Assembly (NCBI RefSeq): GCF_056712565.1
Contig: NZ_CM160072.1
Length of the DNA: 64,000 nucleotides
Direction: 5' to 3' (one strand)
Below, in pieces: positions 3,487 to 63,960 of this stretch. A program made the position numbers and the translations under genes. The notes under the pieces are model-generated. The model worked only from the letters and a program-made list of their open reading frames with translations, made no database searches and was not told the origin of the DNA. The stretch's first letter is position 1; each line of letters begins with the position of its first letter.

Positions 3487-4071
3487 TTATTGCGCTTTAA
3501 AGGCGTGCAATCGGTTCGTTGCTTTGGTCAAGCCATCTGTAAACCACATTTCAGTACAACGCGCCGCTTCGTCGATGGCTTCATCAATTAACTTCTGTTC
3601 ACTAACAGGCGGTTTGCCTAACACAAAACCGACAACTTTATTTTTATCGCCCGGATGACCGATTCCGATGCGTAAACGGTGAAAGTTAGGGTTATTACCC
3701 AATTTACTGATGATGTCTTTCAGTCCATTGTGACCACCATGACCGCCACCCAACTTAAATTTGGCGACGCCAGGAGGCAGATCCAGTTCGTCGTGGGCCA
3801 CCAGAATTTCGTCCGGATTAATGCGGAAAAAACTGGCCATCGCCGCAACGGCTTTGCCGCTGAGATTCATAAATGTAGTCGGGACTAACAGGCGGACATC
3901 TTCGCCTCCAAGGGTGACTCGCGAAGTATAACCAAAGAATTTAGCCTCTTCGCGCAGCGGAGCGCGCAATCGCTCTGCCAGTAAGTCAACGAACCAGGCA
4001 CCAGCATTATGTCGCGTTGCGGCGTATTCAGCACCGGGGTTCGCCAGGCCGACAATCAATTTAATCGTCAC
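3487..4071 (-). CDS. pth: Peptidyl-tRNA hydrolase
   Basis: 194-aa [16 protein letters not shown]...; canonical Pth. Confidence 0.95.
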
Positions 4072-16995: not shown

Positions 16996-17691
16996 GTGAT
17001 AACGCGTGATTTCTTGATGAATGCCGATTGTAAAACGGCATTTGGTGCCATTGAAGAATCACTCTTATGGTCAGCAGAACAACGGGCGGCTTCGCTGGCG
17101 GCGACGCTGGCTTGTCGACCTGATGAGGGACCGGTGTGGATCTTCGGTTATGGATCGTTGATGTGGAATCCGGCACTGGAGTTTACCGAGTCGTGCACCG
17201 GTACACTGGTTGGATGGCATCGCGCGTTTTGCCTGCGCCTGACCGCCGGGCGCGGGACTGCGCACCAGCCGGGACGAATGCTTGCACTGAAAGAGGGCGG
17301 ACGCACCACAGGCGTCGCCTATCGACTGCCAGAAGAGACGCTGGAGCAGGAACTAACCCTGCTGTGGAAGCGCGAGATGATTACCGGCTGTTATCTGCCA
17401 ACCTGGTGTCAGCTTGATCTTGATGATGGACGCACAGTAAACGCCATTGTGTTTATTATGGACCCGCGACATCCAGAATATGAATCTGACACTCGCGCTC
17501 AGGTCATAGCGCCGTTGATTGCGGCGGCGAGCGGTCCGCTGGGAACCAATGCACAATACCTGTTTTCACTGGAACAGGAGCTTATCAAACTGGGAATGCA
17601 GGACGATGGGCTGAATGAATTGCTGGTATCGGTAAAAAAACTGCTGGCGGAGAATTATCCGGATGGTGTGTTACGGCCGGGATTCGCCTGA
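16996..17691 (+). CDS. chaC: Gamma-glutamylcyclotransferase ChaC (glutathione-specific); GTG start
   Basis: ORF 16960..17691; GTG at 16996 preceded by GGAGGTG Shine-Dalgarno gives 231 aa (MITRDFLMNADCK...). Confidence 0.9.
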   Translation: MITRDFLMNADCKTAFGAIEESLLWSAEQRAASLAATLACRPDEGPVWIFGYGSLMWNPALEFTESCTGTLVGWHRAFCLRLTAGRGTAHQPGRMLALKEGGRTTGVAYRLPEETLEQELTLLWKREMITGCYLPTWCQLDLDDGRTVNAIVFIMDPRHPEYESDTRAQVIAPLIAAASGPLGTNAQYLFSLEQELIKLGMQDDGLNELLVSVKKLLAENYPDGVLRPGFA

Positions 17692-17710
17692 GTAAACTTT
17701 CCTCATAGTG

Positions 17711-17726
17711 GGGCGTCAGACGCCCC
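17711..17726. terminator. GC hairpin (gggcgtc-aga-cgcccc) between convergent chaC and ychN
   Basis: Perfect short inverted repeat; U-run weak. Confidence 0.4.
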
Positions 17727-17734
17727 CTCAAACA

Positions 17735-18088
17735 TTAAAATGTGAGCACTTTATCGGCTGACAGCGTCCATTGCGCCAGTTCAACAAGAGTACCGATTTC
17801 CACCCCATCAATCAGAGGAAGTGTACTAATTCCGCGCCCGTCGGTACAGATTTTGCACAATTTCACCGGTACATTCTGAGCGGTAAGGATCTCCAGCATT
17901 TGCTGAATGTTGTAGCCTTCCCCTGGTTTTTGCCCGCGCAACCCGGCTGTGACCGCATCAGACATCAGGAACAGACGCAGATCCAGATTGTTCTCCTGCT
18001 CTCGTAACGCAATGGCCAGCCGCAAGCTGTTAAACAAGGATTCGCTCCCGTAAGGTGCGCCATTGGCAACGATCACGATTTTTTGCAT
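17735..18088 (-). CDS. ychN: DsrE/DsrF-like sulfur-relay family protein YchN
   Basis: 117-aa ORF MQKIVIVANGAPYGSES... Confidence 0.9.
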   Translation of the reverse strand: MQKIVIVANGAPYGSESLFNSLRLAIALREQENNLDLRLFLMSDAVTAGLRGQKPGEGYNIQQMLEILTAQNVPVKLCKICTDGRGISTLPLIDGVEIGTLVELAQWTLSADKVLTF

Positions 18089-18105
18089 TATTTACTCCTG
18101 TATTC

Positions 18106-18263
<158 letters not shown>

Positions 18264-18272
18264 ACCGACGTT

Positions 18273-19667
18273 TTGAGCCGTTTCGTTCCTCGCATTATTC
18301 CGTTTTATTTACTCTTGCTGGCGGCAGGCGGTACAGCTAACGCACAATCTACCTTCGAGCAAAAAGCGGCAAATCCCTTTGATAATAACAATGATGGTCT
18401 GCCGGATTTAGGCATGGCACCTGAAAATCATGATGGGGAAAAACACTTTGCTGAAATTGTGAAAGATTTCGGCGAAACCAGTATGAATGATAACGGGCTG
18501 GATACTGGCGAGCAGGCAAAAGCTTTCGCATTGGGAAAGGTCCGCGACGCGCTTAGTCAACAGGTTAATCAGCACGTAGAGTCCTGGCTATCACCGTGGG
18601 GAAATGCCAGTGTTGACGTCAAAGTGGATAACGAAGGACATTTCACCGGCAGTCGTGGAAGCTGGTTTGTGCCGTTACAAGATAATGATCGTTATCTCAC
18701 CTGGAGCCAGCTTGGTCTTACTCAGCAGGATGATGGGCTGGTGAGCAATGTGGGCGTTGGGCAACGCTGGGCGCGCGGCAGCTGGCTGGTGGGTTATAAC
18801 ACTTTTTATGACAACTTGCTGGACGAAAATCTTCAGCGAGCGGGCTTTGGCGCTGAAGCGTGGGGCGAATATTTGCGACTATCGGCAAACTTTTATCAGC
18901 CGTTTGCTGCATGGCATGAACAGACAGCCACGCAGGAACAACGGATGGCGCGCGGGTACGACCTGACAGCCCGGATGCGCATGCCGTTCTATCAACACCT
19001 CAATACCAGTGTCAGCGTAGAACAGTATTTTGGTGATCGTGTCGATTTGTTTAACTCTGGTACGGGTTATCACAATCCCGTCGCGTTGAGTCTGGGATTA
19101 AATTACACCCCTGTGCCCTTAGTCACTGTGACGGCCCAGCATAAACAGGGTGAAAGTGGCGAGAATCAAAATAACCTCGGGCTGAATCTTAACTACCGCT
19201 TTGGTGTACCGCTCAAAAAACAACTTTCTGCGGGCGAGGTTGCCGAAAGTCAGTCGTTACGTGGTAGTCGCTATGACAATCCGCAGCGAAATAATCTGCC
19301 GACTCTTGAGTACCGACAGCGAAAAACGTTAACGGTGTTTCTGGCGACACCTCCGTGGGATCTAAAACCTGGCGAAACAGTGCCGCTGAAATTACAAATC
19401 CGCAGTCGTTACGGTATTCGGCAACTGATTTGGCAGGGCGATACGCAGATATTAAGTTTGACGCCGGGCGCACAAGCCAACAGTGAGGAGGGCTGGACGC
19501 TGATCATGCCTGACTGGCAAAACGGGGAAGGCGCAAGCAATCACTGGCGATTGTCAGTGGTGGTGGAAGATAACCAGGGGCAGCGTGTCTCCTCCAATGA
19601 GATCACGCTAACGCTTGTCGAACCGTTCGACGCATTGTCAAACGACGAACTGCGCTGGGAACCGTAA
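18273..19667 (+). CDS. ychO: Invasin/intimin-family beta-domain protein YchO (start codon uncertain)
   Basis: 464-aa ORF with N-terminal signal-like segment. Confidence 0.85.
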   Translation: MSRFVPRIIPFYLLLLAAGGTANAQSTFEQKAANPFDNNNDGLPDLGMAPENHDGEKHFAEIVKDFGETSMNDNGLDTGEQAKAFALGKVRDALSQQVNQHVESWLSPWGNASVDVKVDNEGHFTGSRGSWFVPLQDNDRYLTWSQLGLTQQDDGLVSNVGVGQRWARGSWLVGYNTFYDNLLDENLQRAGFGAEAWGEYLRLSANFYQPFAAWHEQTATQEQRMARGYDLTARMRMPFYQHLNTSVSVEQYFGDRVDLFNSGTGYHNPVALSLGLNYTPVPLVTVTAQHKQGESGENQNNLGLNLNYRFGVPLKKQLSAGEVAESQSLRGSRYDNPQRNNLPTLEYRQRKTLTVFLATPPWDLKPGETVPLKLQIRSRYGIRQLIWQGDTQILSLTPGAQANSEEGWTLIMPDWQNGEGASNHWRLSVVVEDNQGQRVSSNEITLTLVEPFDALSNDELRWEP

Positions 19668-20318
19668 TCAGAAAATGCGCTCCTGATGCACCCATACCGC
19701 AGCTTCCACGCGAGACTTTAGCTTCATTTTCTTCAGCATGTGCTTGACGTGAACTTTTACTGTGCTTTCGGTGATGTCCAGGCGGCGGGCAATCATCTTG
19801 TTCGGCAAACCCTGGGCAATTAGCTTGAGAATATCGCGCTCGCGTGGGGTTAACTGGTTAACATCGCGCTCAGTAGTGGCACGGTTAGCGCGCAAGCTGG
19901 CGGCCAGAACAGGCGTTAATGCTTCGCTTAATACCATTTCGCCAGCAGCTGCCTGATGTAACGCTTTCAGCAGATCTTCCGGTTCCATATCTTTTAACAG
20001 ATAGCCATCCGCGCCGCGTTTCAGTGCGGTGACCACATCTTCTTCATGGTTAGAGACGCTGAATACCACAATGCGCCCGGAGAGGGACTTTTCGCGCAGT
20101 TTATCCAGCGTTTCCAGACCGTTCATGCCGGGCATATTGAGATCTAACAGGATCAGATCGGGATCAAGAGACTCCGCCAGTTCAATACCCTGTTCGCCAT
20201 TACTCGCTTCGCCAACCACGGTGATATCTGGTGCCATACTGATAAGCTGTTTTACGCCAGTTCGCAACATCGGGTGATCGTCGATCAGCAGGATAGTAGC
20301 CGGTTCCTGATTACTCAT
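19668..20318 (-). CDS. narL: Nitrate/nitrite response regulator NarL
   Basis: ORF 19668..20432; start placed at ATG 20318 ([19 protein letters not shown]...), 216 aa; overlaps narX stop by 8 bp. Confidence 0.95.
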
Positions 20319-22107
20319 GGGTATCTCCTTGGACGTCTGTGAAAGTTTTTTCGGGAATAAAGGTGACCACCACTTCGGTGCCACCTGATTCACGACGGCG
20401 GACGCGGCAATCGCCTCGTAAACTTTGCGCACGGTCGCGCATTATTATCATGCCGTAGTGATTGCTGCGGATGGCATTTTCAGGCACGCCGCAGCCGTTA
20501 TCCTGGACGGTCAGTTTGACCTGATTATCGTTTTGCGCCACCGTCACCACGACCTCACTCGCTTGCGAATGTTTGAGGGCGTTACTTAATGCCTCACGGG
20601 CAATTTGCAACAAGTGGATTGCCTGATGCGAAGGCACCAGACGAGGCGGCAATTGATAATCCAGCTTCACCGGGAAGCCAAATTTGGCGCTGTACTCTTC
20701 GCAACTCGCCTCCAGCGCCGGACGTAATCCAGGCTCGGTGAGCTGCAAACGGAATGTGGTGAGCAATTCACGCAACTGCACCCAGGATGCATTCAGTTCG
20801 TTACGGATCTGACTTAACAGTTCGCGGCTGCTTTCTGGCAGCGCATCGCCCTGCATCTGTAAGCAACTCACCTGCATCTTCATGCAAGAGAGAGATTGGG
20901 CAATAGAATCATGCAGTTCGCGCGCAATGGTGGCACGCTCTTCCATCACGATCAACTGTTGCTGACGTTCCTGATGGCGATCCAGCGCCAGCGTGGCGGT
21001 GAGTTGTTCAACCAGGGTATCCACCAGTTGTTGTTGATCATGGCTAAGATGACGCCCCTGCGGCAGGGTCGCCAGCAAAATACCGTACTGCGTATGAGTG
21101 TCAGCCAGCCGCCACTTCAGGGTTGTGCCGCGATCGCCAACGGGTAATACGCCGCGCGGGCAGAGCTGGCAGCCTTTATCATCACAAGTCATATCTGGCT
21201 GGCAGGTAAACTCCTGATGATTCTCTTCATCATCAGTGTCATACACCCGCAGTTCGATATCACGTAGCAGGGTTAAATTCTGTAATCCGTTGAGTACAGG
21301 TGACAGGCGTTCACACAGCGGGGCGCGGGAATGCAATCGGCGGTTGGCCTGCCATAAAAAAGAGAGGATCTGATTTTTATGCTCCAGCCCGGCGGTTTTC
21401 TCCTGAACCCGCTGCTCAAGTACGGCATAACTTTCGGCCAGTTCTGCAGACATATTGTTCAACGCAGTTCCAAGCATCGCCATTTCGTTGCGCCCGCTGA
21501 TGTTTGCGCGTTGGGTAAAATCGCGATGGCTGACGGCACTCGCCATTGCCAGCAGTTGCCGCCACGGTTGTAGCAATCTCGCCCGCAACCAGATAATAGT
21601 GAATACCAGTAAAAGTGCCATAAATACCGCCATTACCCGATGGACCAGCACCACTGTCTCAATGCGCATTTCCGTGGTGCGATCAAAACCAGATACCAGC
21701 TGATCAAGCCCGGCAACAAACTGGCTGACATCCGCTGACACCGTTTCGCGGTTTTGTGCACGCATCAGTGCAGGGATCAGTTCATTACGCCAGTAATCTT
21801 GTAAACCCTGTAATTGCGCCAGTTGCCCGTCTCGTTCTGCTGCTCGAGTCAACTCGGCGCTAAATGCTGTTTGTTCCATCTCTTTAATTAAGGGCTTGTC
21901 TTTCTCGCTTAATGGCACTGCTGCCAACAGACGGTAACTTTGCATGCGCAGCGATCCCGCTTTGTTGATCGCATGGGCGCTGCCCTGAACGCCTTGCACC
22001 AGCCAGCCAGAAACCGCCATCCCTGCCAGTCCAATAGCAGTAGAAAGCAACACAATAAGCGCAACCTGATTAACCAGGGTGAGCGGAGAGAGACAACGTT
22101 TAAGCAT
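20311..22107 (-). CDS. narX: Nitrate/nitrite sensor histidine kinase NarX
   Basis: 598-aa ORF with HAMP and H-box (ELHDSIAQ). Confidence 0.95.
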
Positions 22108-22372
22108 GTAAACCTCTTCCTTCAGGCTTTAAATGAGCAATAACCTTAATGAATGTGACGATACATTCTGGAATGGCAGTATTCTCGGCTATTGGCTGAA
22201 GTATACCCATACCCGGAAAGAGTTACTCCTTATTTGCCGTGTGGTTAGTCGCTTTACATCGGTAAGGGTAGGGATTTTACAGCACCGTGAAAAATCTCAT
22301 AATTTTTATGAAATCACTGTACTCACTATGGATAATGATAAATATCAATGATAGATAAAGTTATCTTATCGT

Positions 22373-22386
22373 TTGATTTACATCAA
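22373..22386. promoter_or_regulatory. FNR box (TTGAT-TTAC-ATCAA) in the narK promoter region
   Basis: Perfect FNR consensus read in sequence about 60 bp upstream of narK start codon. Confidence 0.8.
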
Positions 22387-22445
22387 ATTGCCTTTAGCTA
22401 CAGACACTAAGGTGGCAGACATCGAAACGAGTATCAGAGGTGTCT

Positions 22446-23837
22446 ATGAGTCACTCATCCGCCCCCGAAAGGGCTACTGGAGCTGTCATTACAGATTGGC
22501 GACCGGAAGATCCTGCGTTCTGGCAACAACGCGGTCAACGTATTGCCAGCCGCAACCTGTGGATTTCCGTTCCCTGTCTGCTGCTGGCGTTTTGCGTATG
22601 GATGTTGTTCAGCGCTGTTGCGGTGAACTTACCGAAAGTCGGTTTTAATTTTACGACCGATCAGCTATTTATGTTGACTGCGCTGCCTTCGGTTTCTGGC
22701 GCGTTATTACGTGTTCCATACTCCTTTATGGTTCCTATCTTCGGTGGTCGTCGCTGGACGGCGTTCAGCACCGGTATTCTGATTATTCCTTGCGTCTGGC
22801 TGGGTTTTGCCGTGCAGGATACCTCCACGCCTTATAGCGTCTTCATCATCATTTCTCTGCTGTGCGGCTTTGCTGGCGCGAACTTCGCATCCAGTATGGC
22901 AAACATCAGCTTCTTCTTTCCGAAACAGAAGCAGGGTGGCGCGCTGGGTCTGAATGGTGGTCTGGGCAACATGGGCGTCAGCGTCATGCAGTTGGTTGCT
23001 CCGCTGGTGGTATCACTGTCGATTTTCGCAGTATTTGGTAGCCAGGGCGTCAAACAGCCGGATGGGACTGAGCTGTATCTGGCGAATGCGTCCTGGATAT
23101 GGGTGCCGTTCCTTGCCATCTTCACCATTGCGGCGTGGTTTGGCATGAACGATCTTGCTACCTCGAAAGCCTCCATCAAGGAGCAGTTGCCGGTACTCAA
23201 ACGGGGTCATCTGTGGATTATGAGCCTGCTGTATCTGGCAACCTTCGGCTCCTTCATCGGCTTCTCCGCGGGCTTTGCGATGCTGTCAAAAACGCAGTTC
23301 CCGGATGTTCAGATTCTGCAATACGCTTTCTTCGGGCCGTTTATTGGTGCGCTGGCGCGTTCTGCAGGTGGTGCATTATCTGACCGTCTGGGCGGAACTC
23401 GTGTCACTCTGGTGAACTTTATCCTGATGGCGATTTTCAGCGGCCTGCTGTTCCTGACCTTACCGACTGACGGACAGGGCGGAAGCTTCATGGCGTTCTT
23501 CGCAGTCTTCCTGGCGCTGTTCCTGACCGCTGGGCTGGGTAGTGGTTCCACTTTCCAGATGATTTCCGTGATCTTCCGTAAACTGACAATGGATCGTGTG
23601 AAAGCAGAAGGGGGTTCTGACGAACGTGCGATGCGTGAAGCGGCAACCGACACGGCGGCGGCGCTGGGTTTCATCTCTGCGATTGGCGCGATTGGTGGCT
23701 TCTTTATCCCGAAAGCGTTTGGTAGCTCGCTGGCATTAACGGGTTCGCCAGTCGGCGCAATGAAAGTATTTTTGATTTTCTATATCGCCTGCGTGGTGAT
23801 TACCTGGGCGGTATATGGTCGGCATTCTAAAAAATAA
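22446..23837 (+). CDS. narK: Nitrate/nitrite antiporter NarK (MFS)
   Basis: ORF 22440..23837; ATG at 22446 gives MSHSSAPERATGAVITDW..., 463 aa. Confidence 0.95.
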   Translation: MSHSSAPERATGAVITDWRPEDPAFWQQRGQRIASRNLWISVPCLLLAFCVWMLFSAVAVNLPKVGFNFTTDQLFMLTALPSVSGALLRVPYSFMVPIFGGRRWTAFSTGILIIPCVWLGFAVQDTSTPYSVFIIISLLCGFAGANFASSMANISFFFPKQKQGGALGLNGGLGNMGVSVMQLVAPLVVSLSIFAVFGSQGVKQPDGTELYLANASWIWVPFLAIFTIAAWFGMNDLATSKASIKEQLPVLKRGHLWIMSLLYLATFGSFIGFSAGFAMLSKTQFPDVQILQYAFFGPFIGALARSAGGALSDRLGGTRVTLVNFILMAIFSGLLFLTLPTDGQGGSFMAFFAVFLALFLTAGLGSGSTFQMISVIFRKLTMDRVKAEGGSDERAMREAATDTAAALGFISAIGAIGGFFIPKAFGSSLALTGSPVGAMKVFLIFYIACVVITWAVYGRHSKK

Positions 23838-30920: not shown

Positions 30921-32245
30921 TCGGCGCTGAGGGATCCCCATAAATCAGCGATAATAAACCAACACCATATTCTGGTAGGTTCTGGTGAGGTGATTAAGAA
31001 TGGTGCTTAGCACCGTTCGTTTTAAAATTAGCGGGGAGTGTCGTAAGACATTCTCCGCTAACGTCAGATACGAGATTACCCGCCGCGTTTTAATGCTGTT
31101 GGCCTGATATCTAAGATGTAACCCTTGATTTTCAGCGTGATAGCCAATAAGCCACAGCACTATTGTGCTCAGTGTTGCCAGCAGGCTCAGTACCAGCATT
31201 CTTCCTGCCGAACAGCTGTAACTGGCTCGCAGACCGAACCCAAAACGCTCACTTTTTTCATCCCTGAAGTTTTGCTCAATCTGCATTCGGCGGCTGTATA
31301 ACTTCATGATTTCTCGCGGTTTAAAGTCATCTGTGCTGCTGAATATTAACCATGGTTCTTTTGCCGCCGACCTGGCATCTTTTATCTGTGATGGTCTGGC
31401 TATACCACAACGCGAACGTTTATTTCTCCGGCCTTTCGGCTCTTTTTTGTGCAAATAAAAATGACCATCGCAACGGGCGTATTCCGCCCGGGAAAGCGTC
31501 CCCGGCCCCAGATATTCAGGTTTGTTACTGGCCTGTAATTCCTGACGCCTGAACCAGCATTCCCCTTTTCTCGCCAGATGCAGTTGTTTATTGCCTCGTA
31601 TCCGGCCAATAAAATCCCAGCCGAGTGATTTTATGTGCCGAAACCAGGCATTCTGGAACCCTGCATCCGTGACGATGATTACCCTTGCTTTTGGGTTTAC
31701 CGCTTCGGAAAGAGTATTAAGAAAGGCTTGCTGTATCTTTGCATTTTGCTGTTTTTCCGAAGGAACTATCCAACTCAGCAATGGAATCGAATGTCCATAG
31801 CAAATCAGGCTGGCGCGGAGTACGTGATACTCCTGAGAGGGGTATCCACTCCAGTCAACGGCGATGACACACAGTGACAGCTTGCTCGTCAGCATGGAAA
31901 TAATGTTTCTGAAAATCAGGGGGATGTCGTGATGAAGAGACTCATTACCGAGCAGACGATCAACACGTTTTATTTTATTTTTGACCTGAGCATTACCGGG
32001 TAAATAACGTCCGATGCTGGTCAGCGTCAGAGATGCGCCATTGATTAGTGCGATAGTGGCATCCAACAAAGCATTTTGTCGGTATTTGTGAAATGGTGCT
32101 AAAGCACCGCGGAAAAAATTCTGACATACTTGGCGAGCAGGCATAGAGGAGATCTCATTGAATTGGTTGCACAAGTCAGTAGATCACAAAACTCTATGCC
32201 TGTCTTTTTTTACCCGCCCATTACTGGGGATTCCTCAGCGCTCCG
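30921..32245 (-). mobile_element. IS186-like insertion sequence (IS4 family), about 1.32 kb; boundaries approximate (+/- 15 bp)
   Basis: Single DDE-transposase ORF flanked by near-perfect 17-bp inverted repeats GCGCTGAGG(G/A)ATCCCCA at 30924-30940 and 32226-32242; size fits IS186 (about 1.34 kb). Confidence 0.65.
30945..32174 (-). CDS. IS4-family (IS186-like) DDE transposase
   Basis: 409-aa ORF; DDE-type features (VIIVTDAGF) and YREK-like signature (YSRRMQIEQNFRDEK); stop codon 5 bp inside the left IR. Confidence 0.75.
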   Translation of the reverse strand: MCNQFNEISSMPARQVCQNFFRGALAPFHKYRQNALLDATIALINGASLTLTSIGRYLPGNAQVKNKIKRVDRLLGNESLHHDIPLIFRNIISMLTSKLSLCVIAVDWSGYPSQEYHVLRASLICYGHSIPLLSWIVPSEKQQNAKIQQAFLNTLSEAVNPKARVIIVTDAGFQNAWFRHIKSLGWDFIGRIRGNKQLHLARKGECWFRRQELQASNKPEYLGPGTLSRAEYARCDGHFYLHKKEPKGRRNKRSRCGIARPSQIKDARSAAKEPWLIFSSTDDFKPREIMKLYSRRMQIEQNFRDEKSERFGFGLRASYSCSAGRMLVLSLLATLSTIVLWLIGYHAENQGLHLRYQANSIKTRRVISYLTLAENVLRHSPLILKRTVLSTILNHLTRTYQNMVLVYYR

Positions 32246-39424: not shown

Positions 39425-40630
39425 TTATACACCGACATTGACTTGTAACCTGTAAAGTACAATATCGCTGTGTGTAGGCGTTATACATCGTCGCAAATAT
39501 GATGAAGGACAATGCTGCCGGTTTATGGAAAAGTTGTTTTGGGAAAACAAAAAACGGCCCCAGAAGGGGTAATGCCAGTCAGTTAAGCAACTGACTGGCT
39601 CTTTTTCGGGGCTGTGGGGTATTTCCAGGGCCTCTCCTTTACCACTCTCGGGAAGGCCCTTTCCCTTCTTGTCGGTAATTTCACTGGTTGTCCCATACTT
39701 GCAAGATCGCGCATCAGCTCCGGTATACGTCCCGGTGAAGCGTATGGCGTCCGTCATCGACGTCAGCAGATGGCAGACTTTTCCTTTGCGCGTCACGGTC
39801 AGCAGGCGGGCTGTCACCTCATTTCCCAGTCCCGGCCACTTTTTTCGTGCCTGCGGGCTGATGTTCAGCTTCACCAGATGATCGCCTTTACCCAGTTTTC
39901 TGATCTCTTCATATTGCGCTCCCTTTCTGAGAGGGATCATCCAGTGGCGGTGTTCTCCCGCCAGGCTCCAGGCATTTAACAGTCCTGGTGAGTAATAACC
40001 TTTATCCATTAACGTCAGAGTGTTATCGCCGGTTTGTTCTATAAGTTGCTCAGCAAGCTCATTTTCGCTGTTCTTCATCGTGCCGAAGGCTGCAGTCGTC
40101 AGCAGATGGCTGGTCAGTTCCATCTGGCAGACCATTTTGACCTGCGGGTAGAGCGCCGGGTTCCCGGCATGTGTCTGGCGGGGGAAGGCTGCATCGTTCT
40201 CTGGTGTATCCGGTGTGCGCCAGAACACACCATCGATGGCCAGCAGGGTCAGGCCGCACCAGTGCGGATGCGGCGTGGCGTTATGCCAGAGCTGCGCTGT
40301 TTTCGTGAACACGCGGCGGACAGCCTCAATTCCCAGACGCTGGCGGGTCTGAATAACGGCACTGGGGGCAACGAAGGGGCGATTGCCCGGCAGCATGATG
40401 TCCAGGCGATTCACAATCTGGTGAAGAGGTTCTTTACGCTCAAGCGCCATGCCAACAATACACCAGACCATCATTTCGAGGGGAAGACGGCGCTTGCGTA
40501 GCGTTACAGTACCTGATTCGGCAAGGCAACGAGAGATGAGTTTGGGGGCGAGGTAATCCCCCAGAGAAGTCAGTGGGTTACGCAGAGAATCGTAACGGGA
40601 TACCAAATCAAGGGCCTGCCCAATGAGCAT
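39425..40630 (-). pseudogene. insZ: IS4 transposase, disrupted: N-terminal about 300 residues look intact, C-terminal part is out of frame and reads through the left IR
   Basis: 401-aa [29 protein letters not shown]... resembles IS4 transposase as I recall it; the reading frame does not stop inside the element (ends 130 bp beyond the IR), indicating deletion/frameshift; K-12 carries an insZ pseudogene at this tdk-adhE position. Confidence 0.6.
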
Positions 40631-62988: not shown

Positions 62989-63738
62989 TGCCAGCATCCT
63001 TTTTGTATCGGACGTAAACGGGCCAACATTGAAAGAATGCATATTTTATTTAATAGCTCCCGTTCGTGTTTTCTCTTGTTAATGGCATCTTCAGTAAATA
63101 CAGGGTTACTGATAGTGACACCAATTTCAAAACAACCTTCAGACGTATTAACGTTTGGTAATAACGTTTCCATTATCGCGTCCTCAACAATGAATTTTGT
63201 GATGCGGTGCCTGGTGCTTCCAGGTGACGTTAACCAGTTAACAATTAACGCCGGATACAGAGAATCCACCCATAACACTGTTTTTGGTTTTAACTGTTCC
63301 GCGTGCGCTTAGCCGCATTCACCGCATCACAAAATTCACTTTAAAAAGGGCGGCAGAGCAGTCACGGAGTAAAACTGATACCGCCAAACGTCACCAGAAA
63401 ATTGATAACAGAGGGCGTTGCAGCGGGGTTGTCACTTAAGCGTATGGTCAACCTGACAACCCGGTGTCCTCAACGGTGGAAGGAATAACCCCGCCATACT
63501 TACCGCCGCGCCATTTCGCGGATTGCCACAACCGGAAGCGCACGGTCGACGAAAATTTAACGACAGGCTATCTATGAACCAGCTACCTCGCCGTGCGCTT
63601 TCGCGTTATGGTCTGACTTTTCAGGGAAATATCCTTTCAGTAAACTGTCAGTGCCGGATGCTCACCCGTGTCCGGCGCACGCACTCCACCTCACCCGTGG
63701 AGAACTCCTTAATTACCAACCTTAGCTTCGTTGGTTAG

Positions 63739-63960
63739 CTATTCACGCGGGTATGTAATCATTCTGGCAATGCTTAATGCCGCTGCTTTTTCCAGATTGG
63801 TGATATCCTGCTCCAGAGCGGACAGATTTTCAGCCTGCTTAGCCCTGGCTTCATTGGCCCATTTCAAATCCTGCGCTGCATTAATTTTCTGGCGCATCCA
63901 CTCATAAAGTTCATCATTGGTATAGTCTGGCGCGATGATGACGGGTTCTCGTTTCTGCAT
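63739..63960 (-). CDS. Hypothetical phage protein (73 aa, predicted helical, ..LSALEQDITNLEKAAA..)
   Basis: ORF with GAGGAA Shine-Dalgarno 7 nt upstream of ATG; co-oriented with prophage early genes. Confidence 0.5.
   Translation of the reverse strand: MQKREPVIIAPDYTNDELYEWMRQKINAAQDLKWANEARAKQAENLSALEQDITNLEKAAALSIARMITYPRE

Follow-up and report, generated by a model that had tools for sequence, protein, structure and literature searches.

The convergent genes ychO and narL of Escherichia coli most probably (roughly 0.8 by our estimate) form a genuine pair without any spacer, in which transcription that continues past the end of narXL is halted by Rho after about 200 nt of ychO, and ychO transcripts probably end likewise inside narL. 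The arrangement is real, ordinary, and already known; the additions made here are the link between both published records of it, a rut-like tract, a measure of how deeply the junction is conserved (often as a 4-nt overlap), and an embedded hairpin with weak support. The anatomy of the junction, the missing intrinsic terminator, the composition of the tracts, and the conservation were established in the present analysis of a 64-kb window (i.e., the whole stretch of 64,000 nucleotides under study), and the bicyclomycin-sensitive termination region (PMC7815308) and the transcript overlap (PMC12288877) were taken from published data.

Abutting stop codons of ychO and narL

The ychO gene (positions 18273 to 19667 of the window, plus strand) has a TTG start, encodes 464 amino acids, and ends with a TAA codon at 19665 to 19667, according to the open reading frame (ORF) list, Pfam, and RefSeq. 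By the same sources, narL (19668 to 20318, minus strand; 216 amino acids) ends with a TGA codon at 19668 to 19670, which reads tca on the plus strand. The ORF list and the annotation place narX, the upstream gene of the narXL operon, at 20311 to 22107 on the minus strand. The ychO product is an inverse autotransporter or putative invasin (Pfam IAT_beta; E value, 5.5e-103), and NarL is a nitrate/nitrite response regulator with a Response_reg domain (E value, 5.7e-31) and a LuxR-type GerE helix-turn-helix domain (E value, 4.1e-23). In the ORF translations, the two proteins terminate as ...LRWEP* (YchO) and ...HQERIF* (NarL).

The two stop codons abut in the hexamer TAATCA at 19665 to 19670 (context, ...gaa ccg TAA TCA gaa aat gcg...; positions 19660 to 19675, gaaccgTAATCAgaaaat), leaving a spacer of 0 nt. 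The hexamer is identical in K-12. A test of adjacency identified ychO (plus) and narL (minus) as tail-to-tail neighbors with abutting stops, and the ORF coordinates of the E. coli pair contain no shared coding base; the coding sequences (CDSs) touch without overlapping. Across the junction, 701 bases are 100% identical to those of E. coli ATCC 11775, and the same 701 bases show 95 to 100% identity in 5,421 of 5,426 complete E. coli genomes. The RefSeq annotation likewise ends the two genes on adjacent bases, both in ATCC 11775 (ychO, 2770087; narL, 2770086) and in K-12 MG1655 (ychO, 1275178; narL, 1275179). An earlier note on this DNA had placed the ends of ychO and narL at 19667 and 19668 with no space between them; the sequence, the ORF list, and RefSeq in two strains bear this out. 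The junction is thus exact to the base and already present in the reference annotation.

The window contains 14 annotated convergent CDS pairs, with spacers of 0, 0, 37, 39, 43, 45, 52, 52, 54, 54, 143, 147, 157, and 284 nt. Twelve pairs are therefore separated by 37 to 284 nt and two by nothing; the second zero-spacer pair is a small prophage pair, comprising ydfC and a hypothetical gene. Among the 14 pairs of the 64-kb window, the ychO/narL junction is an outlier but not unique. The usual spacer of 37 to 54 nt offers room for one hairpin. The neighboring ychN/chaC pair, for example, has a 43-nt spacer with a GC hairpin (GGGGCG-CTTGA-CGCCCC). Both ychN and chaC were found within the 3-kb flank in 7 loci only, with another gene lying between them in 5 of the 7.

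Absence of an intrinsic terminator

A consensus scan of positions 17600 to 22500 detected no intrinsic terminator at the junction. The scan returned five terminator-like sites, which is the level expected by chance (6.1 ± 2.8), and the nearest candidates on the narL strand are weak stems (5 to 8 bp) located 250 and 350 nt downstream. Folds of the 201 nt around the junction were unremarkable (z scores: ychO strand, +0.97; narL strand, -1.63), and a small stem spanning the narL stop was not significant in folds of short segments (-12.3 kcal/mol; z score, -1.0). A search of positions 18000 to 22500 on both strands against Rfam 15, with permissive filters, gave no match with an E value of ≤1. An intrinsic terminator at or near the junction was therefore rejected, since the consensus scan, the 201-nt folds of both strands, and the short folds yielded nothing above chance there; the earlier note was right that no terminator lies between the two genes.

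Transcript ends and Rho-dependent termination

Transcript maps bearing on this locus have been published. Supplementary file 2 of Adams et al. (eLife 2021; PMC7815308) includes a Rho termination region at MG1655 position 1274961 on the minus strand, labeled as antisense to ychO (Rho score, 10.58; P = 5.1e-14). Coverage upstream and downstream of this position was 101 and 6, respectively, without bicyclomycin (BCM) and 649 and 408 with it (PMC7815308). As there are no indels between the strains here, MG1655 coordinates were transferred to the window with an offset of 1255511, which places the highest Rho score of this bicyclomycin-sensitive region at position 19450 on the minus strand, 218 nt beyond the narL stop; the position is approximate because the score uses 800-nt windows. 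K-12 and the window strain differ at 5 bases in this 218-nt 3' region. The data were obtained in K-12 under one condition, exponential growth in LB (PMC7815308). With bicyclomycin, coverage upstream of the site itself also rose 6-fold, and some of the signal could therefore come from transcription that started farther upstream than the narXL promoter.

The second record is Table 1 of the ExcludonFinder study (Sanmartin et al., NAR 2025; PMC12288877), which names ychO-narL among 165 convergent pairs with overlapping transcripts in 50% or more of 58 MG1655 transcriptomes. The earlier note had reasoned that, with no space between the genes, the transcripts must overlap or end inside the partner gene. 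For narXL, the Rho region antisense to ychO and the excludon listing agree with this, and the 3'-end mapping that the note called for is largely in print, in the form of narXL read-through with Rho termination about 200 nt into ychO. The sole mapped event is narXL transcription entering ychO, not the reverse. In the curated tables of Adams et al. (PMC7815308), none of narL, narX, and ychO has a discrete Term-seq 3' end, and, for cells in LB, no Rho region is given on the ychO (plus) strand here. Literature searches on narL with Rho-dependent termination, antisense, or bicyclomycin retrieved nothing, and those on ychO with H-NS retrieved nothing beyond a sigma-54 site and a target list for YfeC.

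Base composition points to a place where Rho could load. Positions 19487 to 19600, read on the minus strand and antisense to ychO codons, form a C-rich, G-poor tract in the 3' RNA of narXL, which, lying beyond the narL stop, is untranslated in this frame. In 80-nt windows over approximately 19600 to 19480 on the narL strand, the C content is 0.35 to 0.38 and the G content 0.19 to 0.21, with a C/G ratio of up to 1.93. The C-minus-G excess peaks at 0.20 in 19566 to 19487, directly upstream of the published termination peak; among all 80-nt segments taken from the two strands of the 64-kb window, this value stands at the 99.4th percentile. On these grounds, we consider 19487 to 19600 a candidate rut site. 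A C excess in the region 50 to 200 nt beyond the narL stop also characterizes 61 ychO-bearing species (mean C, 0.33; mean G, 0.25) and is smaller in 17 species without ychO (C, 0.25; G, 0.21).

On the opposite strand, a moderately C-rich tract begins right after the ychO stop (19661 to 19760, plus strand, antisense to the narL 3' end), with a C/G ratio of 1.7 to 1.8 and a C-minus-G peak of 0.125 (93.6th percentile). This richness of the first 100 nt past the stop makes Rho termination of ychO transcripts within antisense narL plausible, and 19661 to 19760 may be a Rho loading region for them.

In the mechanism that we favor, ychO and narL both lack an intrinsic terminator. An RNA polymerase that transcribes narXL would pass the narL stop and continue along the antisense strand of ychO, and narX transcripts would thus read through across narL into ychO. 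The untranslated narXL RNA would then expose the C-rich, G-poor tract about 70 to 180 nt beyond the stop, where Rho would load and end transcription approximately 200 nt or more inside ychO. Transcripts of ychO would have to run into antisense narL, where Rho would probably stop them too. The regulatory consequence of the overlap is likely to be small.

The termination region itself fits known patterns. Many of the Rho regions of Adams et al. (PMC7815308) are antisense to the next gene, and the ychO row is of the same kind, unremarked among them; the C-rich, G-poor tract upstream of its site is what Rho loading would lead one to expect. Another row reports ychN read-through into chaC, despite the 43-nt spacer of that pair (PMC7815308).

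Conservation of the tight junction

We characterized the arrangement in 80 NarL-encoding loci, one genome per species. A ychO homolog is convergent to narL in 62 of these loci, and in 57 of the 62 species the two genes are separated by no more than 11 nt or overlap. The commonest state is a 4-nt overlap (23 species), followed by spacers of 0 nt (12 species), 1 to 3 nt (10 species), and 5 to 11 nt (9 species); five species, in Citrobacter and Kluyvera, have spacers of 21 to 46 nt, and in three the ychO frame runs on into narL for an overlap of 48 to 54 nt. Coding bases are consequently shared, through overlaps of either 4 nt or 48 to 54 nt, in 26 of the 62 related species. The 4-nt overlap (YTAR) arises because the final Phe codon of narL (TTY), together with the TA of its stop, supplies TAA or TAG on the opposite strand. 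Short tail-to-tail overlaps are a known prokaryotic gene arrangement, to which the 4-nt overlap of 23 of the 62 relatives belongs, whereas the E. coli pair merely touches.

Although the YchO tail that follows the conserved domain can be anything from 10 to 35 residues long, the ORF still ends at narL. A motif resembling DDPRW-LLPEE recurs in this tail, showing that many lineages translate it. The arrangement is ancestral in the Enterobacteriaceae, the junction without a spacer is an old one, and Serratia and Rouxiella have the arrangement too. In E. albertii, only a remnant of about 130 nt of the ychO 3' end is left, and it still abuts narL. Among the relatives that lack ychO, several (a Hafnia, some Dickeya, and another member of the Enterobacterales) carry a GC-rich hairpin right behind narL; examples are loci L071 (-33.6 kcal/mol) and L073.

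A hairpin within the ychO coding sequence

A repeat search and minimum free energy (MFE) folding identified an interrupted inverted repeat of 11 bp, with one bulge and a 7-nt loop, at 19581 to 19610. It occupies the ychO codons for QRVSSNEITL, and on narL-sense RNA it lies 58 to 87 nt beyond the narL stop. The predicted fold is stable to -16.9 kcal/mol in the narL sense (z score, -1.82) and -17.7 kcal/mol in the ychO sense (z score, -2.49). In the cross-species alignment, an outer pairing (stem B, GGTCAG/CTGACC) is formed in 61.5% of cells. An embedded terminator or 3'-protecting structure on the narL strand may thus form the narXL 3' end, acting directly where a U-tract follows the stem and, in E. 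coli, as a stable stem-loop at which the trimming back of Rho-terminated RNA would end. We regard this alternative as unlikely for the reasons given below.

The comparative evidence lends it some weight. Most of 61 species have a hairpin at the corresponding position, and in 38 of the 61, the 9 nt that follow the stem region on the narL strand include five or more T residues, examples being Salmonella (CGCTGACC-TTTTTCATC) and Klebsiella indica (CTGACC-TTTTTTAT). The hairpin and its T-rich run resemble a terminator in Salmonella, Klebsiella, Yokenella, and Phytobacter. Using a codon-anchored, gap-free alignment and 500 shuffles, we found 78.1% of stem cells paired, compared with 73.7 ± 0.7% in the shuffles, and 30 cells with both sides changed, compared with 7.8 ± 2.8; none of the 500 shuffles reached either observed value, an excess that is not a probability because the species are related. 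Controls in which the partner was slid by 1 to 3 columns were only 27 to 51% paired. Pair 15-34 alternates among U-A (17 species), U-G (15 species), and C-G (13 species). Pairs possible only in the narL sense (45 G-U cells) slightly outnumber those possible only in the ychO sense (30 A-C cells).

Other observations speak against this role. The E. coli stem is followed on the narL strand by CCCCUGGUUAUC, which is not a U-tract, and E. coli has CCCCTGGTTATC where other species show a T-rich run. Termination there is bicyclomycin sensitive in E. coli, and the tables of Adams et al. contain no Term-seq 3' end at the hairpin (PMC7815308). When the codons of ychO were shuffled synonymously within each species, the mean z score was -0.58 in the narL sense (8% of species at P ≤ 0.05) and -0.89 in the ychO sense (20% of species at P ≤ 0.05), so the excess is larger on the strand opposite to that of narXL. 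This small excess in stability over synonymous shuffles indicates that codon usage and the conserved peptide account for most of the hairpin. The hairpin may be under selection as an RNA structure, but this is weakly indicated.

A more specific proposal would assign the hairpin a dual use, preserved through the divergence of more than 60 species, in which one strand encodes the YchO peptide GQRVSSNEITL and the other provides the 3' end of the narXL mRNA; we consider this quite unlikely. An equally doubtful extension is that the hairpin is a true intrinsic terminator in Salmonella and Klebsiella and a protective stem-loop in E. coli, where the U-tract would have been lost. If the dual use were true, it would account for a spacer never having been needed between ychO and narL, and it would couple the evolution of the ychO sequence to narL expression. 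If functional, the embedded hairpin would offer a modest example of a neighbor's transcript constraining a coding sequence.

Comparison with excludons and bidirectional terminators

The favored reading, Rho-dependent termination of narXL read-through inside ychO, is to be weighed against three further alternatives. In the first, the pair would be a functional excludon, with ychO and narXL mutually antagonistic because polymerases collide or because RNase III cleaves the duplex RNA. The pair is a listed member of the convergent excludons of E. coli MG1655 (PMC12288877), with which it has short spacers and conserved synteny in common, and the class shows shorter spacers and higher synteny than other neighboring pairs (PMC12288877); the listing is weak evidence, because in a pair without a spacer any 3' extension counts as overlap. 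The ychO/narL pair differs from the class in its spacer (0 nt, compared with a mean of 95 nt) and in the intrinsic terminator, of which we found none, whereas 146 of the 165 pairs have predicted hairpin terminators in the transcript of the neighbor (PMC12288877). Adjacency and a tight junction are kept in 62 species. Both genes can be active, as strong in vivo induction of ychO has been reported for an avian pathogenic strain. It counts against an excludon function that narXL read-through is limited by Rho (PMC7815308) and that the avian-pathogen ychO paper makes no mention of a nitrate or nar phenotype. For comparison, mscL-arfA (Life Sci Alliance 2023; PMC10070815) is a convergent E. coli pair with overlapping 3' ends, listed in the excludome like ychO-narL, in which antisense RNA crosstalk is reported to have a physiological effect; the likeness of ychO-narL to it lies in geometry and transcript overlap. 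We therefore hold a functional excludon to be very unlikely, and transcriptional interference or antisense regulation of narXL, for which the earlier note saw potential, to be a bare possibility. A functional excludon, if real, would tie nitrate sensing to adhesin expression.

Bidirectional intrinsic terminators between convergent genes were reportedly described by Ju et al. in 2019. They share with ychO/narL the gene geometry and the problem of stopping two converging polymerases. Head-on collision of polymerases, rather than Rho, might fix the transcript ends at the gene boundary. In the preprint by Wang et al. (bioRxiv 10.1101/2022.10.23.513370), a single-molecule assay is reported to show head-on and codirectional collisions driving bidirectional termination at convergent E. 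coli pairs. According to these authors, the bidirectional termination sites need an intergenic stem-loop in the nascent RNA that places collisions between the gene boundaries; ychO/narL offers no room for one, and neither the scan nor the folds found a stem-loop at the junction. The mapped narXL end, moreover, is bicyclomycin sensitive and lies about 200 nt inside ychO (PMC7815308). Collision would also require frequent transcription from both sides, but no plus-strand feature was detected here in LB (PMC7815308). It is thus highly improbable as the determinant of these ends.

Finally, an annotation artefact, in which ychO truly stops sooner and leaves an ordinary spacer with a terminator (the shorter ychO that would have undone the earlier note), draws on the poor conservation of the last 10 to 35 YchO residues, whose length differs by genus, but is effectively refuted by the frame, the tail motif, and the terminator scan, given that the TAA is the first in-frame stop of ychO in the ORF list, that the codons upstream of it encode GQRVSSNEITL, a motif shared across genera whose codons vary mostly in the third position, that the frame, whatever the length of the tail, closes no more than a few bases from narL in 57 of 62 species, that DDPRW-LLPEE and variants of it recur at the C terminus in many genera, and that no terminator-like hairpin bearing a U-tract occurs in the region.

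Implications

The significance of the Rho-terminated, spacer-less ychO/narL pair beyond its own locus is small. It is a tidy example of E. coli dispensing with a terminator between convergent genes, in which Rho takes the antisense strand of the neighboring gene as a termination zone. One practical consequence concerns genetics: deletion or replacement of ychO up to its stop also takes out the stretch that naturally serves narXL as 3' untranslated region and as termination zone. In the published ychO knockout of an avian pathogen, the resistance cassette was set directly against the narL stop. Since removal of ychO strips narXL of its 3' region, the phenotypes of ychO mutants need to be checked for effects on NarL.

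Variation at the ychO-narL junction in related species

The convergent genes ychO and narL abut in the window, and the NarL-encoding loci of other species include several variants of this arrangement. In Escherichia albertii (L004, approximately positions 3652 to 3790), most of ychO has been deleted, leaving a degenerate 3' remnant of approximately 130 nt (...RQRVSSNEITLMFVVLFGVMPNGEPRREP, followed by the stop codon). The remnant abuts narL as before, with the same TGATTA junction, and it retains the hairpin sequence that lies within the ychO codons (window positions 19581 to 19610). In Shimwellia pseudoproteus (L054), Entomohabitans teleogrylli (L055), and a metagenome-assembled genome (L016), the ychO frame lacks a stop codon at the narL junction and runs on, antisense to narL, for 48 to 54 nt. 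If these open reading frames are translated to their ends, the three loci contain real ychO/narL coding overlaps of 16 to 18 codons.

The exception is Kluyvera (L022, L035, and L037), in which a spacer is present between ychO and narL, extending 43 to 46 nt after the narL stop codon. This spacer holds a near-perfect palindrome, which in L022 reads GTGACAGG-T-CCTGTCAC. On the narL-sense strand, the most stable version of the hairpin within ychO is also found in Kluyvera (-20 to -22 kcal/mol), and this greater stability is attributable in part to the rare isoleucine codon ATA.

In a search of complete E. coli genomes with 701 bases spanning the junction, only 79% of the query was matched in E. 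coli strain H32 (hit H12, NZ_CM184319.1), with the match divided between two places; narL carries the annotation "LuxR C-terminal-related transcriptional regulator" in this strain. The divided match and this annotation suggest that narL is disrupted in H32. The window contains two IS4-family transposase genes, one of which is frameshifted. The first (approximately 30945 to 32144; NZ_CP033092.2 positions 2757610 to 2758809) adjoins narI and is convergent with it across a 52-nt spacer, and the second (approximately 39583 to 40630; 2749124 to 2750171) adjoins adhE.

Other convergent pairs and upstream elements

A second spacer-less convergent pair in the window is formed by ydfC and a gene for a 54-amino-acid hypothetical protein, which meet at 63738-63739 (NZ_CP033092.2 positions 2726015/2726016) in a prophage region; the small open reading frame facing ydfC may be an annotation call instead of a real gene. 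Bonocora et al. (2015, PMC4591121) described a sigma-54 binding site, IA11, that is located upstream of ychO, within ychN on the antisense strand, and is oriented towards ychO. Its copy in the window (17841 to 17857, plus strand) carries one mismatch relative to K-12 (TCGGTACAGATTTTGCA) and precedes the ychO start by approximately 416 nt; the site could be a ychO promoter.

The neighboring convergent pair, chaC and ychN, is separated by a 43-nt spacer (17692 to 17734) with a GC hairpin inside (GGGGCG-CTTGA-CGCCCC). Adams et al. (PMC7815308) nevertheless list a region of Rho termination, antisense to chaC, on the minus strand at MG1655 position 1272857, approximately 390 nt beyond the ychN stop codon (88/7 without and 471/461 with bicyclomycin; score, 12.3). 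This position corresponds to approximately 17346 in the window, a conversion that presumes no indels between the strains at chaC/ychN. Read-through into the neighboring gene thus occurs despite the presence of a hairpin in the spacer.

Implications for an existing ychO mutant

The ychO knockout of an avian-pathogenic strain is reported to have pleiotropic phenotypes, which were complemented in trans (PMC4787180). Aligned with window positions 19668 to 19717 (minus strand), the homology arm of the reverse mutagenesis primer from that study terminates precisely at the narL stop codon. In this knockout, the resistance cassette therefore abuts narL and takes the place of the entire narXL 3' untranslated and Rho termination region.
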